Shown here piece by piece: positions 18,248-22,297 of a stretch of 34,889 nt of DNA. The stretch comes from an uncultured Bacillota bacterium (GTDB taxonomy: Bacteria > Bacillota > Clostridia > Christensenellales > UBA1242): assembly GCA_947090235.1 (NCBI GenBank), contig CAMUNJ010000001.1, positions 1-34,889 of the forward strand, read 5' to 3'. Positions within the stretch are counted from its first letter, which is position 1. The number at the start of each line of letters is the position of its first letter. A program made the position numbers and the translations under genes. The notes below the pieces were generated by a model. It made no database searches and was not told the origin of the DNA. It worked only from the letters and a program-made list of their open reading frames with translations.

Positions 18248-18344
18248 TATATTTAGATTATACTACAAAACATAGTTATTTCAAACATATTTAAAGAAAA
18301 GCAAAAATTTAAATAAAATTTTTTAAAATTTTGTTGATAATTTA

Positions 18345-18373
18345 TTGACAACTGCAAAAAAATTTGATATTAT
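18345..18373 (+). promoter_or_regulatory. sigma-A type promoter for tRNA-Asn
   Basis: TTGACA (18345-18350), 17 nt, TATTAT (18368-18373). Confidence 0.65.
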
Positions 18374-18407
18374 AGCCTTGCATTAAAAAATTAATGCATC
18401 CCTCTAA

Positions 18408-18483
18408 TCCCCTATAGCTCAGTCGGTAGAGCACTCGGCTGTTAACCGAGTTGTCGTAGGTTCGAGTCCTACTGGGGGAGCCA
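18408..18483 (+). tRNA. tRNA-Asn (anticodon GUU), CCA encoded
   Basis: 76 nt. Acceptor TCCCCTA/TGGGGGA; D-arm GCTC-AGTCGGTA-GAGC; anticodon arm CTCGG-CTGTTAA-CCGAG; T-arm GTAGG-TTCGAGT-CCTAC; discriminator G; CCA. Confidence 0.92.
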
Positions 18484-18582
18484 AAGTATTTTCCTTAGGA
18501 AATTTTCCTAGGGATTTTTATTTTTCTTAAGGGTCTGCAACAACCAAAAAGCAGGCACCCTTCTTCGCCCGCTTTTTATATG

Positions 18583-18615
18583 TTCGTACTTGTTTGAGTT
18601 CTACTGGAAAAGCCA
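18583..18615 (+). other. degenerate duplicate of the tRNA-Asn 3' end
   Basis: GAGTTCTACTGGAAAAGCCA versus the tRNA tail GAGTCCTACTGGGGGAGCCA (16 of 20 identical), with TCGTA upstream also shared. Confidence 0.45.
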
Positions 18616-18622
18616 TACTACC

Positions 18623-18650
18623 AAAAACTAAGATTGAATCTTAGTTTTTT
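18623..18650. terminator. bidirectional intrinsic terminator
   Basis: AAAAACTAAGAT-tga-ATCTTAGTTTTT. Confidence 0.65.
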
Positions 18651-18671
18651 AATTTAGATAAATTGACAAAT

Positions 18672-18693
18672 AAAAAGCCTAGCAATCGCTAGG
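18672..18693 (-). terminator. terminator after the lipoprotein gene
   Basis: Plus strand AAAAAGCCTAGC-aatc-GCTAGG. On the minus strand the stem is followed by TTTTT. Confidence 0.6.
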
Positions 18694-18699
18694 TTTTAT

Positions 18700-19215
18700 T
18701 TACACTTGTGGTGCAGGCTCTAAAGTGAAGGCAGACTGATCTACTATAAATTTATATTTCACTTGAGTGTCTTTATTCCAGTTTATTGTCAATGTAAAAT
18801 CCTGACTTTGTTCACTGATAGATTTTATTAATGTAAATGTATTTTGATTTCCATTATCAAATGGTCTAACAGTGTTTGAATTTACAAGGTAAGTTGAATC
18901 TTCTGGCACAACTCCACTTTCATGATTTACAGTTATCGCTACATAGTGTTTTGTATCTGCATTACCATAATACAATGCTTTTCCTGTATTATCATCATAT
19001 TTAACAGTTCCTGTCAGTTTCCAAACTCCGTTGAAACCTTCCTCATCACTTTGTTTTTCCCAAGTTGATGCGGCTACCGAATAATTGTTGTTATCATAAG
19101 TGCCACTATATTGACCAAACGATACAAGTTCACTTTTTCCACAACCTACAAATCCCACTGCTGCCAATGCACACATTCCTAAAGCACCAAGTTTAACCAA
19201 TGTTTTACTTTTCAT
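18700..19215 (-). CDS. lipoprotein, unknown function
   Basis: Signal peptide with lipobox (ALAAVGFVG-C). The mature part is beta-rich. Confidence 0.65.
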   Translation of the reverse strand: MKSKTLVKLGALGMCALAAVGFVGCGKSELVSFGQYSGTYDNNNYSVAASTWEKQSDEEGFNGVWKLTGTVKYDDNTGKALYYGNADTKHYVAITVNHESGVVPEDSTYLVNSNTVRPFDNGNQNTFTLIKSISEQSQDFTLTINWNKDTQVKYKFIVDQSAFTLEPAPQV

Positions 19216-19287
19216 TTAAATTCCTCCCGCTGTTATTGTGTGCAGAAAATCATTTTTTATTCTTTATTAATCTTTTACTTTTTATTA

Positions 19288-20328
19288 TTATCTTTTCAGC
19301 CCTTTAAGTCCATTTTTTGCAAGATTATAGTTTTGAAAGACTGGGTCATTTGTCACTTCTTTTCCAAACCAGTCAGGAGGATAAAAATCTTTTGCGTCTT
19401 GAGTACTTTCAAACTCAACTTCAACAATTTTTAAACCTTCCAAAGTTCCATGATATATATTTATCTCTGCGATACATTCATTCCCATTTACTGGATTTAA
19501 AGTATAAAATGATCTTGTTTTTTCTATTATGCCATGGCTACAATCTTTAAATAGGTTGACAAATGTATTTTTATCAATTGCTTTTTCCATTTCGTGACGC
19601 TCTATACCATTGCCCAACTTTTCGGTATAAAAGAATTGTTTGTTATCTACACTTCTAACTCGCTTTTCTGGGTTTTGACCTTCAAAATATGCTTGCATTA
19701 TTTCAACTTTATTTTTTATATCTTTTGGCATTTTATCAACGATAAACTTACGCTCTATCTCTTTATTTTGAAATTTTCGCTTTTCTAACAAACCAATCAA
19801 GTCACAAGTTATTATTTGCATACAAGGATCTGTCGACTTTAGTTCTTTCAACTTGACATTCATATCTTTCATCAATTTATATATGTCTTGTTCATCCTCT
19901 TTTGCTTGATCTACCGTTTGATATCTACCTATCTCTTTATATTCATGATTACGCCAGATAAAATAATTTAAGTTTTCAAACTTATCCACACAATCTTTTA
20001 CTAAAGGAATCATAACATCTTGAGATATTGTTGATTTATGATTTTTTATTAATCTTGTGTTATAAAAAGCCGAAAGATAAAGCGGACTATCACAAATCAA
20101 AACCTCCACCTCTTTTCTTGTCACACGCATATTATACCATTGATTAGCAAATATATATAACTGATCATCTATAGCCGTTTGATTTTTCTCATATACTCTT
20201 TGTTTAACAAACTCCGAAATATATTCGCAATTAACGCCAATCTTTTTTAAATAACCAGCAAGATCATAAGCAATTGTGCTTTTCCCGCTTCCTGGACCTC
20301 CTAGCAAATTGATAACTATTTGTTTCAT
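19288..20328 (-). CDS. fusion protein: P-loop kinase-like (AAA_28/NadR-RNK-like) N-domain + CYTH (triphosphate tunnel) C-domain
   Basis: Walker A GGPGSGKST. DSP...Y segment LICDSPLYLSAFY. The CYTH signature EIERKFIV starts the C-domain, and VEVEFES..PPDWFGKEVTNDPVFQNYNLA closes it. Start at ATG 20328 after GGAGGAA (the track start is a GTG inside the RBS). Confidence 0.7.
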   Translation of the reverse strand: MKQIVINLLGGPGSGKSTIAYDLAGYLKKIGVNCEYISEFVKQRVYEKNQTAIDDQLYIFANQWYNMRVTRKEVEVLICDSPLYLSAFYNTRLIKNHKSTISQDVMIPLVKDCVDKFENLNYFIWRNHEYKEIGRYQTVDQAKEDEQDIYKLMKDMNVKLKELKSTDPCMQIITCDLIGLLEKRKFQNKEIERKFIVDKMPKDIKNKVEIMQAYFEGQNPEKRVRSVDNKQFFYTEKLGNGIERHEMEKAIDKNTFVNLFKDCSHGIIEKTRSFYTLNPVNGNECIAEINIYHGTLEGLKIVEVEFESTQDAKDFYPPDWFGKEVTNDPVFQNYNLAKNGLKGLKR

Positions 20329-20366
20329 AAATTCCTCCACTATAAATACTTATTTTTTTATAACGA

Positions 20367-20385
20367 ATGCGTAAATTTTACACAT
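20367..20385. promoter_or_regulatory. 7-5-7 palindromic operator upstream of the kinase::CYTH gene
   Basis: ATGCGTA-aattt-TACaCAT (one mismatch), 4-5 nt upstream (minus-strand sense) of a TATAAA -10-like hexamer. Confidence 0.55.
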
Positions 20386-20417
20386 AATCATTCCTTTTTA
20401 AAAGTGCTTTCGCACTT

Positions 20418-21092
20418 TTATATAACATTTACTTTTTTTATATCCTTTGCAAAACGGTAAAGTTTAGCCGGCTTTGTTTGAGGCTTTTCTTGTATCATTC
20501 CTGTATCTTCTATTATATGAAGAGCAAGAAGACGCTTTCTAAAATTTCGACGGTCTATTTTTTTATTTAAAATCCCCTCATATGCCTTATGCACTTCGGG
20601 AATTGTAAAAGTTTCTGGGAAAAGATCTTTTAAAATAGTGCTATCAAATATTTGTTCCTTCAAATATTCAATTGCCTTTTCAAGAATTTCCTTATGATCG
20701 TAGCCAAGTTCTGGCACGCGGTCAATCAAAAACCAATCTGCATCTTGAGTATGACTTGTTTCTTTAATTATTTTTACTCTTTTGCAATCAATCACTCCTA
20801 CATGAGCAATCCCTATCATTCTCATAATTGGACTTCTGTCTGGACGAGAAAATACGTCAAACATTTTATATCTAATATTTTTCATACCCGTTTTTTCAAA
20901 AATTTCTCTATCCATAGCAGTTTTAACATCCTCGTTATTGTATGCAGCCCCACCAACCAAGATCCACTTATCTTTATATGGTTGATTTTTTCGTTTTATC
21001 AACAAAACCTTAAATTTACCATCTTCAACTGTAAACAATGCTAACATAACATGAATACCTTGATTTTTATAAAGCGGATTGCTTTTGTCCAT
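20418..21092 (-). CDS. nrtR: NrtR-like regulator (Nudix domain + C-terminal winged HTH)
   Basis: Nudix box with a degenerate catalytic pair (GGAAYNNEDVKTAMDREIFEKTG). The C-terminal FTIPEVHKAYEGILNKKIDRRNFRKRLL...KPAKLYRF matches the NrtR wHTH pattern. Confidence 0.7.
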   Translation of the reverse strand: MDKSNPLYKNQGIHVMLALFTVEDGKFKVLLIKRKNQPYKDKWILVGGAAYNNEDVKTAMDREIFEKTGMKNIRYKMFDVFSRPDRSPIMRMIGIAHVGVIDCKRVKIIKETSHTQDADWFLIDRVPELGYDHKEILEKAIEYLKEQIFDSTILKDLFPETFTIPEVHKAYEGILNKKIDRRNFRKRLLALHIIEDTGMIQEKPQTKPAKLYRFAKDIKKVNVI

Positions 21093-21112
21093 TGCAGCCT
21101 CCTTATGGTTTT

Positions 21113-21141
21113 ATTATATGCGTAAAAAATACGCATGTCAA
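21113..21141 (-). promoter_or_regulatory. nrtR-like promoter with the operator filling the spacer
   Basis: Minus strand TTGAC[ATGCGTAttttttACGCAT]ATAAT. The -35 is TTGACA (21141-21136) and the -10 is TATAAT (21118-21113). The perfect palindrome at 21118-21136 occupies the 17-nt spacer. AAGGAGG RBS lies downstream. Confidence 0.7.
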
Positions 21142-21207
21142 GGATTTTTAATAACATTTTAAATTTTTATAAACAAAAAAAACACCACAATAGCGGTGTT
21201 TTTTATT

Positions 21208-21441
21208 TTAATCAATCCATAATACTTTATCGCTAACAATGATTGTGATAATATCTACAACCCAAAGAATAACTGGGCAGAAAATTATCATAAGCACTGC
21301 AAGAACAATTCCTACAACTGAATTTTTAGATATTGATCTACAAAGACGATAGATTGCCCAGATAATATCTAAAACTGGAAGTGCTAAAATAACTTTTACA
21401 ATCTTTGGAAGTCCATCCATACTTTTAACTAATTCGTTCAT
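21208..21441 (-). CDS. small two-TM membrane protein
   Basis: 77 aa with two hydrophobic helices. A terminator hairpin follows at 21174-21206. Confidence 0.5.
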   Translation of the reverse strand: MNELVKSMDGLPKIVKVILALPVLDIIWAIYRLCRSISKNSVVGIVLAVLMIIFCPVILWVVDIITIIVSDKVLWID

Positions 21442-21526
21442 ATTTTTATCTCCTTTTTTGATTACATTACTATATTATGCTCCGTTATACAAAAAAGTAT
21501 AAATTATTTTGACTTATTTTGTCACT

Positions 21527-22297
21527 TTATTTTTTGCGCTGCGAATAAACAATCTTTTTTGTCTGCTTATTCAATATATGTTTATGTATTGCTTTATAAA
21601 TAAGATTATATATAACACAAATCAAAACCATAGAAGCAATGCCTATCATAAATAAAACCACATTATACCAAATTTGACCAGCATACAATCTAAAATCTTC
21701 TAGTGGTTTGAATTGGCTAAACAAAATGTTTGCATAATTTGAATTTAGCATATAAGCACAAGGTGCTGCATAACAAACATAAAGCACAACCCCTCCTACC
21801 ACATTTATGCAATCTCTAAATTTAGGTTTGTAATCATTTAGTGCAATTGTAAAAATCATATATGCAATTACGGCGTGATGAAAAAAGAAGGTATGAAAAT
21901 TATGGAACGAACCAAAAACATCTCCCGTTGATGTTCCAATCAACCCCAATGGATTAGCATAAGTTAATGCAGTAACTGCAACAGCATAACAAAAAGCCAT
22001 TGGTTTAAAAACATTTCCGACTCTCTCACCTAAAAGTTGAGAAAGAGGAAAGAGAACTACAAACAAAGAACAAAAATGCAAAGGCAATACATAAAAGTTG
22101 AAATCTGGTTTACCTGCATATAAACTTTGTTTTGCAATTTCAAGACCTAGCACCAATAAAGAAATCAGTATCAAAGGTATTCGTTTTATCCAACCCTCTT
22201 TTTTTCGCAACAAAAACCTTGCTGCCAAAGCAAGCAAAACCAAGCCAAGCAGCACAAGAGGTAAAACTATAACATCACTTCTAGTCCATTTAAACAT
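21527..22297 (-). CDS. polytopic membrane protein (YwaF/TIGR02206-like?)
   Basis: 256 aa, about 7 TM. The family assignment is a guess from size and topology only. Confidence 0.5.
   Translation of the reverse strand: MFKWTRSDVIVLPLVLLGLVLLALAARFLLRKKEGWIKRIPLILISLLVLGLEIAKQSLYAGKPDFNFYVLPLHFCSLFVVLFPLSQLLGERVGNVFKPMAFCYAVAVTALTYANPLGLIGTSTGDVFGSFHNFHTFFFHHAVIAYMIFTIALNDYKPKFRDCINVVGGVVLYVCYAAPCAYMLNSNYANILFSQFKPLEDFRLYAGQIWYNVVLFMIGIASMVLICVIYNLIYKAIHKHILNKQTKKIVYSQRKK

Follow-up and report, generated by a model that had tools for sequence, protein, structure and literature searches.

A putative NrtR/AraR-family repressor and a kinase::CYTH enzyme with a common operator in gut Clostridia

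The gene pair and its promoters

The window, that is the whole analysed stretch of 34,889 nt, stems from an assembly of 888,535 bases in 121 contigs (73% complete). It carries two neighbouring minus-strand genes, one for a Nudix-type regulator and one for a fusion of a kinase and a CYTH domain, each with a copy of the same palindrome in its upstream region. The locus comprises the following features:

19288..19764, minus strand: enzyme CYTH domain (residues 189-346 plus stop), predicted NeuTTM-type triphosphate tunnel metalloenzyme with the full catalytic set
19774..20328, minus strand: enzyme kinase domain (residues 1 to about 185), predicted P-loop nucleoside/nucleotide kinase
20367..20385, no strand: operator O2, ATGCGTA-aattt-TACaCAT, one mismatch; the enzyme start codon lies 56 nt downstream
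20375..20402, minus strand: candidate enzyme promoter P_enz, TTTAAA, 16-nt spacer, TAAAAT (9/12); -10 within O2
20399..20420, minus strand: hairpin AAAAGUGC-GAAA-GCACUUUU (RNA fold), beginning at the regulator stop codon
20418..21092, minus strand: regulator gene, 224 aa, N-terminal Nudix fold and C-terminal NrtR-type winged helix
21113..21141, minus strand: regulator promoter P_reg, TTGACA, 17-nt spacer, TATAAT; 12/12 consensus
21118..21136, no strand: operator O1, perfect palindrome ATGCGTA-N5-TACGCAT, its 17-nt core forming the spacer of the regulator promoter
21177..21204, no strand: strong bidirectional intrinsic terminator, 12-pair stem, T-runs on both strands (terminator scan)

On the minus strand P_reg reads TTGACA-TGCGTATTTTTTACGCA-TATAAT, with the -35 hexamer at 21141..21136 and the -10 hexamer at 21118..21113. 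An earlier sequence-only reading of this DNA had described a perfect palindrome filling the 17-nt spacer of a TTGACA/TATAAT promoter; both the complete match to the promoter consensus and the 19-bp palindrome were confirmed, and the other sequence features it listed were likewise found where it had placed them. It had also set the second copy of the palindrome before a TATAAA hexamer. Copy and hexamer both exist, but the comparison of 22 loci favours the TAAAAT within the operator spacer as the -10 element, together with a conserved TTTAAA situated 16 nt upstream of it. With its -10 assigned in this way, P_enz is probably the weaker of the two promoters. All 27 homologues of the enzyme begin as at ATG 20328 (MKQIV...), and this codon, not GTG 20340, is the most likely start.

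The hairpin between the genes is probably a weak terminator. Its T-run continues into the TTTAAA hexamer, which resembles a -35 element, and a GC-rich stem followed by CTTTTtAAA is kept at the 3' end of the regulator gene in 22 loci; a simple terminator scan did not report it. On the other side, the terminator at 21177..21204 sets the module apart from an upstream gene for a 77-aa membrane protein. A riboswitch or leader RNA was considered and rejected: an Rfam scan of positions 18300-21600 (E up to 1) returned a tRNA and sub-threshold terminator-like matches only, and a riboswitch is also unlikely because the leaders are too short.

At up to two mismatches the window contains two operator sites against 0.06 expected by chance, and none of 100 shuffled windows gave two. 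With the same tolerance O1 and O2 are the only sites in the whole assembly (reversed control pattern: 0). The genome scan for ATGCGTA-N5-TACGCAT that the sequence-only reading had proposed thus returned the two module sites alone, and the palindrome is not common genome-wide. The consensus operator is a 19-bp palindrome, aTGYGTA-N5-TACRCAt; written as TGC-GT-A-N5-T-AC-GCA it contains the core GT-N7-AC that characterizes the palindromic operators, about 21 bp long, of the NrtR family (Rodionov et al. 2008, PMC2330246).

Domain affiliation of the regulator and the fusion enzyme

The N-terminal part of the regulator affiliates with the Pfam family NUDIX (6.6e-11, 42.8 bits against a cut-off of 21.1) and the C-terminal part with NrtR_WHD (6.7e-21, 74.7 bits against 27), which bears out its description as an NrtR-like Nudix regulator with a winged helix. 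Among solved structures the protein matches AraR of Bacteroides thetaiotaomicron (1e-30, residues 12-215) and NrtR of Shewanella (9e-18), and its winged helix aligns end to end with both. The score against the NCBIfam NrtR equivalog model NF050029 is 115.7 bits and lies below the cut-off of 400. The Nudix box, G-x5-E-x7-RE-x2-EK, is invariant across 23 orthologues. In its EE-to-EK change (REIFEKTG) the sequence-only reading had seen a hint of sensing; the motif is present, and an EK invariant among the orthologues fits a sensor role.

Like NrtR of Shewanella oneidensis and Synechocystis, the regulator combines an N-terminal Nudix sensor with a damaged box and a C-terminal winged helix, and palindromic operators lie in the promoters of its own and the adjoining gene. 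In the alignment the Nudix box of Shewanella NrtR also ends in EK. Unlike the NrtR regulons, the predicted regulon contains no NAD gene; its targets are the kinase::CYTH gene and, in relatives, dNMP-kinase and dCTP-deaminase genes. The nearest solved relative, AraR (PDB: 5bs6), senses L-arabinose and controls sugar utilisation, which makes it a precedent within the NrtR family for a pathway other than NAD and a ligand other than ADP-ribose (PMC4666351). The Nudix box of AraR is more degraded (RV..EL), whereas the present regulator keeps RE..EK, and the operator and regulon of AraR are unrelated to those of the module. Pentose and PRPP regulons are further accepted exceptions to the NAD role of the family (PMC2330246).

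The first half of the enzyme matches Pfam AAA_28 weakly (9.4e-9, 36.1 bits against a cut-off of 27). Its invariant columns comprise the Walker A residues G10..G15-K16-S17-T18, D80-S81-P82, R126 and G134-R135-Y136-Q137. The PHROG match is phrog_2107, 'thymidylate kinase' (1.2e-15), and Foldseek matched thymidylate kinases (3e-6), deoxyadenosine kinase (3e-5) and NadR (7e-5). A family profile run against the PDB reached the deoxyguanosine kinase of Mycoplasma and not NadR; as a means of identifying the kinase this search was set aside, its matches being marginal (APS kinase, deoxyguanosine kinase) or spurious (P-loops of RecA and SRP). Close standalone homologues are named both 'deoxyadenosine/deoxycytidine kinase' and 'nicotinamide riboside kinase' in the sources. 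The resemblance of the domain to thymidylate and deoxynucleoside kinases is thus no weaker than that to NadR, and the kinase specificity cannot be read from these scores. Concerning the choice between AAA_28/NadR and dNMP kinase that the sequence-only reading had left to a further search, the AAA_28 affiliation stood and a NadR-specific one did not, since Foldseek, PHROG and the PDB profile favour thymidylate/deoxynucleoside kinases.

The second half of the enzyme is not matched by the Pfam CYTH model PF01928, even at an E-value of 10, although precomputed PF01928 matches exist for three homologues. The CYTH assignment is based instead on sequence and fold matches to the PDB. The stand-alone triphosphatase NE1496 of Nitrosomonas europaea (NeuTTM; PDB: 2fbl, 3typ) was found with phmmer (8e-17), with the family profile (3e-35) and as the best Foldseek match (7e-14; TM-score of 0.72 normalised to the target), and Foldseek alignments gave 34-36% identity. 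In 28 sequences E190xE192-R193-K194 (the ExExK motif), Y214, R223xR225, K237, R244xE246xE248, K270xR272, E288 and E303xE305 are invariant; Y214 and K237 align with the Tyr-28/Lys-52 dyad of NeuTTM (PMC3440374). With NeuTTM and CthTTM, both stand-alone bacterial CYTH triphosphatases, the domain has the fold in common, and with NeuTTM also ExExK, the basic and acidic tunnel residues, the Tyr/Lys dyad and a WFGxEVT tail. It is apparently an active NeuTTM-type triphosphatase which, unlike NeuTTM, is fused to or encoded beside a P-loop kinase behind the predicted operator of a Nudix repressor.

The P-loop kinase::CYTH fusion that had been read from GGPGSGKST, EIERKFIV and VEVEFES is confirmed by these domain assignments, and all three motifs are present. 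In the AlphaFold2 model of the enzyme (pLDDT 89.9, pTM 0.58) the packing of the two domains is uncertain. The protein ends about 10 residues past the CYTH domain and has no hydrophobic tail. One homologue (P0005 in locus L003) had been flagged 'with_TGA=W', and an alternative genetic code was considered; the sole extra is a tail of 20-30 residues past the end of the family, most likely read-through in gene calling and not recoding. A relative (G010) encodes the kinase (183 aa) and the CYTH protein (152 aa) in separate adjoining genes; because the two occur as adjacent genes in some relatives, they probably work as a pair. A related CYTH domain is fused elsewhere to a YfbR-like 5'-deoxynucleotidase. 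The joint chemistry of a kinase and a triphosphatase in one chain is not obvious.

A nucleoside-kinase-like P-loop domain and a triphosphate tunnel domain are also joined in one polypeptide in TTM1 and TTM2 of Arabidopsis (PMC9582702). The plant proteins have a kinase of the uridine/cytidine-kinase type and a C-terminal membrane anchor, and in AtTTM1 a TTM domain incapable of catalysis locks the kinase (PMC9582702). In contrast, the kinase of the module is of the AAA_28 type, with no PRK/UCK (PF00485) match, all catalytic residues of its CYTH domain are invariant, and it has no tail anchor. Bacterial proteins combining CYTH with PF00485 exist as a group apart. The plant and the module fusions look independent.

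Conservation of the module and its wider regulon

The regulator, the enzyme and both operator positions are kept in about 20 species-level genomes, and roughly every third species in a single genus of gut Clostridia, with genomes of about 1 Mb, carries the cassette. The regulator gene lies directly upstream of the fusion gene in 18 of the 20 fusion-bearing species genomes; in lookups that started from the regulator, an AAA_28 protein of 336-366 aa adjoined it in three of four cases. Across loci the regulator is 58-83% and the enzyme 37-57% identical, and the flanking DNA diverges. O1 nevertheless sits between -35 and -10 in nearly every locus, and the layout TTGACa/t-17-TATAAT of the regulator promoter is kept in 19 loci. 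In most of the 22 loci the distance from the second operator to the enzyme gene downstream is 31-43 nt; in L007, L011, L012 and L026 the site is found farther away, at 89-182 nt or ahead of small ORFs that intervene. This phylogenetic footprinting in about 20 genomes supports the earlier proposal of an autoregulated pair with a common operator.

In 20 other module-bearing genomes the two module sites are usually the only ones genome-wide. The proposal of a two-gene module holds for the present genome with its two sites; in some relatives the regulon is wider. There the same operator also precedes an operon for a dNMP kinase, an ATP-grasp protein and two dCTP deaminases, here termed the Type B cassette, which lies downstream of the regulator gene in four genomes (G013, G518, G520 and G522). 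In two genomes (G010 and G500) the operator precedes both cassettes, and only one regulator gene is present in each. Type B alone provides the genus with true dCTP deaminases (14 genomes). A phage homologue is situated between a dCMP deaminase and an anaerobic ribonucleotide reductase. Further operator-controlled proteins of 430, 261 and 299 aa, behind dual operators in relatives, gave no Pfam match. The control of a search for a nucleotide transporter (TLC) matched nothing anywhere.

Function of the module and alternative explanations

We consider the gene pair to be an autonomous accessory regulon cassette, composed of a repressor of the NrtR/AraR family and a kinase::CYTH enzyme under a common operator, and assign this reading a probability of about 60%. 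The winged-helix domains would bind the 19-bp palindrome, presumably as a dimer. Since O1 forms the spacer of its own promoter, the protein would repress itself, and with O2 placed over the -10 region of the weaker enzyme promoter the same repressor would block the enzyme gene. The Nudix domain most likely senses a ribose-phosphate or nucleotide-type ligand, which would free the repressor from the DNA. In the enzyme a P-loop nucleoside/nucleotide kinase is joined to what appears to be an active NeuTTM-type triphosphatase, and the two would act as a pair. The regulatory wiring is clear, and the pathway looks nearer to deoxynucleotide than to NAD metabolism. The leading reading is salvage or pool control of nucleosides/nucleotides on the deoxynucleotide (pyrimidine) side, a lean owed to the same regulator and operator apparently driving the operon for the dNMP kinase, the ATP-grasp protein and two dCTP deaminases. 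As rough odds for the substrate or ligand we give about 40% for a deoxynucleotide, about 25% for nicotinamide riboside/NAD and about 35% for others.

A classical NrtR regulon of NAD salvage would have an ADP-ribose-sensing regulator, an AAA_28 nicotinamide riboside (NR) kinase trapping NR imported by PnuC, and CYTH as an accessory. We regard this as rather unlikely, although the regulator belongs to the NrtR family, with a Nudix domain closest to those of the ADP-ribose pyrophosphatase type, and the kinase, above the Pfam cut-off, falls into the AAA_28 superfamily that also holds the ribosylnicotinamide kinase NadR of NAD salvage pathway III. The genome encodes PnuC, and none of its proteins matches AAA_28 better than the fusion. 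Published cases of NrtR control include operons such as the streptococcal nadR-pnuC-nrtR (PMC2330246). In six genomes a paralogous AAA_28::CYTH family is encoded about 2 kb away from a PnuC paralogue; it never co-occurs with the module family (0 against about 4 expected in 154 genomes, uncorrected for relatedness); in the PnuC-adjacent sister family some members carry an N-terminal HTH like enterobacterial NadR. Strong AAA_28 ORFs of 370-460 aa were rejected as NadR; they constitute a second family of AAA_28::CYTH fusions, part of which carries an HTH. A standalone homologue is found within a nadE-pnuC-nadR-YAcAr cluster, but a true NadR kinase is already present in that cluster, and PnuC-family paralogues, up to six per genome, may carry other substrates. 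The NAD link suggested by the sequence-only reading found no support: the operator precedes neither pnuC, located on another contig, nor any other NAD gene here or in the 20 other module-bearing genomes. Unlike NadR, the enzyme has no NMNAT domain and is unlinked to pnuC. Its kinase is no nearer to NadR than to thymidylate/deoxynucleoside kinases, the NrtR equivalog score is far below its cut-off, and the co-regulated operon for dCTP deaminases does not fit an NAD role. The NMNAT fold (PF01467) occurs in 27 of the 154 genus genomes and not in this one, so that NMN would be left without an onward route. The fusion might itself be a NadR analogue performing both steps of NR salvage, the P-loop domain making NMN and the tunnel joining NMN to AMP, with CYTH as a nucleotidyl transferase modelled on the CyaB-type CYTH cyclases that act on ATP. 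We consider this a long shot; if true, it would account for the NAD supply of a genus in which an NMNAT-fold enzyme is not recognisable in 127 of 154 genomes. The repressor of the NrtR type would then do its classical job on a non-classical enzyme, and the PnuC-adjacent sister family would be the same solution without a repressor.

An inducible anti-phage or stress module, in which the repressor silences nucleotide-depleting enzymes until infection brings a nucleotide signal such as ADP-ribose, appears improbable as well. Defence by dCTP-deaminase depletion is a known principle, and the patchy, accessory distribution (45 of the 154 genomes of the genus contain the strict operator), the varying genomic location and phage relatives of both enzyme domains, of the dNMP kinase and of the dCTP deaminases would agree with it, as would perfect consensus promoters under tight, sometimes double operators, which are typical of genes that need silencing. 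Against this, PADLOC gave no significant match for either protein of the module or for those of Type B, toxin-like or effector domains are absent, the neighbours are housekeeping genes (rpsO-pnp, tilS) and not defence islands, and in the window the module lies outside a nearby integrative element. That the palindromes are chance AT-rich inverted repeats or RNA hairpins beside genes without common control is very hard to credit. The genome is AT-rich, O2 is able to form a small RNA hairpin, and the strict pattern has a background of about 0.2 matches per genome (30 control matches in 154 genomes), for which reason isolated single sites, e.g. inside an ung gene, are meaningless. Site sequence and exact promoter position are kept, however, despite the divergence of both proteins, the sites are paired around the regulator gene, as was never the case for the control pattern, and on other contigs the motif is found again in front of unlinked target operons. 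The family-typical GT-N7-AC core and the lack of an Rfam match also argue for operators.

The autonomous cassette probably represents a new, non-NAD version of the NrtR regulon with a target enzyme that has no prior characterisation; none of the papers in the library searched contained both 'NrtR' and 'CYTH'. Regulators of the NrtR family go almost everywhere under the annotation 'NUDIX hydrolase' or are taken to control genes of NAD metabolism, and in this clade a clean, fully conserved operator appears to govern a regulon other than NAD biosynthesis. To our knowledge, the chemistry that a P-loop kinase and a triphosphate tunnel enzyme perform together has been explained by nobody, and bacteria, phages and plants all have independent combinations of the two. 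The ligand of the repressor must be a metabolite of the pathway and would therefore reveal the purpose of the kinase-TTM pairing. The hosts are very reduced gut Clostridia without NMNAT-/CoaD-type enzymes, and the answer would therefore also bear on how such auxotrophs manage their nucleotides or cofactors.

Operators and promoters of the module

The module comprises a regulator and an enzyme gene, each preceded by a palindromic operator.

20418-21092, minus strand: regulator gene, 224 aa, with a NUDIX domain (6.6e-11) and an NrtR-type winged helix (6.7e-21)
20328 (preferred start ATG), minus strand: enzyme gene, 346 aa, with an AAA_28 P-loop domain at residues 6-164 (9.4e-9) and a CYTH-type C-terminal half
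21118-21136: operator O1, in the regulator promoter
20367-20385: operator O2, one mismatch, 56 nt upstream of the enzyme start

The sequence-only reading had described a palindrome filling the spacer of a TTGACA/TATAAT promoter, with a second copy ahead of the next gene, and this arrangement was borne out. On the minus strand the regulator promoter reads TTGACA-TGCGTATTTTTTACGCA-TATAAT, agrees with the consensus at 12/12 positions and has a 17-nt spacer that is the palindrome core. Two sites were observed in the window against 0.06 expected, and the scan proposed at the time found these same two as the only ones in the 888-kb assembly (73% complete); a reversed control pattern gave zero matches across the assembly. 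The TATAAA hexamer noted before the enzyme gene is present, but the candidate -10 element conserved among 22 loci is TAAAAT, located in the operator spacer. The promoter scan predicted a weak enzyme promoter in the window, TTTAAA-16-TAAAAT, whose -10 element is the operator's own spacer. Across the 22 loci the second-site region follows a fixed order of GC hairpin, CTTTTtAAA, about 10 nt, aTAAA, operator, AAataAAGGAG and ATG. No riboswitch was found at the module.

The assignment of the regulator as a Nudix-winged-helix protein was confirmed by the domain matches listed, and its top solved relatives are AraR from Bacteroides (1e-30) and NrtR from Shewanella (9e-18). The EK in its Nudix box, to which attention had been drawn, is genuine: the motif G-x5-E-x7-RE-x2-EK did not vary in 23 orthologues, and Shewanella NrtR likewise carries EK at this place. 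The operator, TGC-GT-A-N5-T-AC-GCA, contains GT-N7-AC, the core of most NrtR-family operators (Rodionov et al., PMC2330246). The interpretation of the regulator and the palindromes as a repressor with its operators is, at the level of sequence, well supported (probability about 0.85).

Conservation and genomic setting

A word-indexed search retrieved 27 full-length fusion homologues with identities of 39-97%, every one of them of metagenomic origin or from a Clostridia genome bin. When one genome per species was scanned, there were 20 fusion-bearing loci, titled uncultured Clostridia, Christensenella or Catabacter, and one additional distant match to the kinase domain only. The regulator lies directly upstream of the fusion in 18 of the 20 loci, and across loci it is the better conserved partner, with 58-83% identity versus only 37-57% for the enzyme. 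Nearly all fusion loci have exactly two operator sites, the first between TTGACa/t and TATAAT, 42-46 nt upstream of the regulator start, and the second 31-43 nt upstream of the enzyme start; in 20 other module-bearing genomes these two were usually the sole sites genome-wide. A lookup of four regulator homologues (59-72% identical), made independently of the enzyme, found an adjoining AAA_28 protein of 336-366 aa in three cases. Since the neighbours of the module differ among genomes (rpsO-pnp, tilS, yabQ and others), it behaves as an accessory cassette.

Several loci depart from this layout. In the extracted locus L013 (3827-4001; also in L091) both operators, at -174 and -36, and a consensus promoter precede the fusion, but the regulator gene is missing from the interval; in the L013 genome it has apparently been lost or relocated. 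Locus L007 (4195-4986) has two small ORFs of 124 and 136 aa without family match between regulator and fusion, the second operator preceding the first of them. A metagenomic fusion copy (L073:5727-6794) is broken into 217 and 117 aa with loss of part of the CYTH domain, likely a pseudogene or an assembly error; the fusion is intact at 366 aa in the near-identical contig L072. The homologue P0005 (L003:5001-6113) was called with TGA as tryptophan and has a tail of 20-30 residues absent from other family members; rather than recoding, this is probably gene-calling read-through of a true stop.

The kinase-CYTH enzyme and a second fusion family

The enzyme had been read as a kinase-like domain fused to a CYTH domain, and both halves could be placed. 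The Pfam CYTH model did not match the C-terminal half; this half matched the Nitrosomonas triphosphatase NE1496 (NeuTTM) by sequence (8e-17), by family profile (3e-35) and by fold (Foldseek 7e-14, model pLDDT 89.9). In 28 fusion sequences the active-tunnel residues are invariant, namely ExExK, two R-x-R/K-x-R pairs, R-x-E-x-E and a C-terminal ExE, and the kinase domain retains Walker A, a D-S-P motif and a G-R-Y-Q segment. In the alignment with NeuTTM, the counterparts of Y214 and K237 are Tyr-28 and Lys-52, a dyad that has been proposed for that enzyme (PMC3440374). The parallel drawn earlier with plant TTM1/2 extends to the joining of a kinase to a tunnel domain; the plant proteins have a kinase of another family than the present enzyme, and an inactive tunnel domain (PMC9582702).

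After clustering at 50%, just six or so representative clusters contain the full-length fusion. Taken by itself, the kinase domain is a member of a huge family of proteins of roughly 180 aa (1581 representatives at E <= 1e-30), whose automatic names are as different as 'deoxyadenosine/deoxycytidine kinase' and 'nicotinamide riboside kinase'. In the genus genome G010 kinase (183 aa) and CYTH protein (152 aa) are encoded by two separate, adjoining genes, which suggests that the fusion records a functional pair.

A second, paralogous AAA_28::CYTH family (type 2) is present in the genus, with proteins of about 370 aa, AAA_28 matches of 1e-19 to 1e-25 and only 26% identity with the window's enzyme in the C-terminal half. 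Some members (433 aa) carry an N-terminal HTH_3 domain, a layout like that of NadR. In six genomes a PnuC paralogue is encoded at a distance of about 2 kb from the type 2 gene. Type 1, the window's family, and type 2 (about 34 and 20 of 154 genomes) share no genome versus about 4 expected with kinship ignored.

Type 2 loci
L104:3151-4263, with PnuC at L104:5048-6025
L105:2784-4085
L106:3252-4364

Regulon and pathway

The strict operator was present in 45 of the 154 species genomes of the genus. Here the regulator's cargo is either the kinase/CYTH pair (Type A) or a four-gene operon (Type B).

Genes and loci of the Type B operon
T4-type dNMP-kinase-like protein, 180 aa (phrog_139, 8e-11)
Protein of 234 aa without Pfam match, ATP-grasp-like predicted fold (pLDDT 87, Foldseek about 1e-4)
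Two tandem dCTP-deaminase-family proteins (TIGR02274, 109.7 and 91.9 bits versus a cut-off of 92.8)
L047:3984-6288 (G010:C51) and L048:3725-6771 (G013:C2)

Type B follows the regulator in four genomes (G013, G518, G520 and G522) with the two-operator layout unchanged, and coordinates point to the same arrangement in G027 and G028. Within the genus, true dCTP deaminases are confined to Type B cassettes (14/154 genomes). In G010 and G500 the regulator has Type A beside it, and Type B sits on another contig as an orphan operon preceded by an operator. As each of these genomes has one regulator gene and both cassettes stand behind the operator, a single repressor would control both. Operators also occur as pairs, 28-34 bp apart, in consensus promoters of three further genomes: ahead of a 430-aa protein in G433 (L068:3443-4803), ahead of a 261-aa protein, an ankyrin-repeat protein and two more uncharacterised proteins in G438 (L069:172-3356), and in G477 (L087:619-1551), where a 299-aa protein precedes the regulator. 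The 430- and 261-aa proteins had no Pfam match.

The module had been proposed to be NAD-linked, and the regulon does not bear this out. No operator was found near any NAD gene in the window's genome and 20 other module-bearing genomes, and the PnuC gene of the window's genome has neither an operator nor a kinase neighbour. By Foldseek the kinase domain is closest to thymidylate kinases (3e-6), followed by deoxyadenosine kinase (3e-5) and NadR (7e-5); its PHROG label is 'thymidylate kinase' (1e-15), and the enzyme family profile reaches deoxyguanosine kinase, not NadR. In a phage, the gene for a kinase homologue is flanked by those for dCMP deaminase and anaerobic ribonucleotide reductase, and another protein joins a related CYTH domain to a YfbR-like 5'-deoxynucleotidase. 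Like the co-regulated Type B operon, these two contexts favour a possible connection with deoxynucleotide metabolism. NadD, NAPRTase and a PF01467-fold protein were not found in the window's genome. The PF01467 fold, detected in 14/14 reference genomes as a control, occurs in only 27 of the 154 genus genomes (15 of the 103 high-quality ones), which would leave NMN without a canonical path to NAD; these Clostridia of roughly 1 Mb seem to be without the canonical final reactions that make NAD and CoA. On the other side, PnuC-family genes, whose products may differ in substrate, occur in 103/154 genus genomes with up to six copies each, and a standalone kinase-domain homologue (L109:1535-4684) is found in a cluster of nadE, pnuC, nadR (NMNAT + AAA_28), YAcAr (SLOG-type), a small ORF and the kinase. 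This setting hints at NAD or ADPR, unlike that of the homologue in Erwinia phage Kaldavass (L071), which is of the deoxynucleotide kind. Together with the type 2 fusions near PnuC, these observations keep the NAD side alive.

A PADLOC search of the module gave no defence match, and among the papers searched none mentioned both NrtR and CYTH. Judged from the genomic evidence, the module is a real, conserved and autoregulated NrtR-family unit with a predicted regulon other than NAD biosynthesis, and its cargo is an uncharacterised kinase paired with a predicted triphosphatase.
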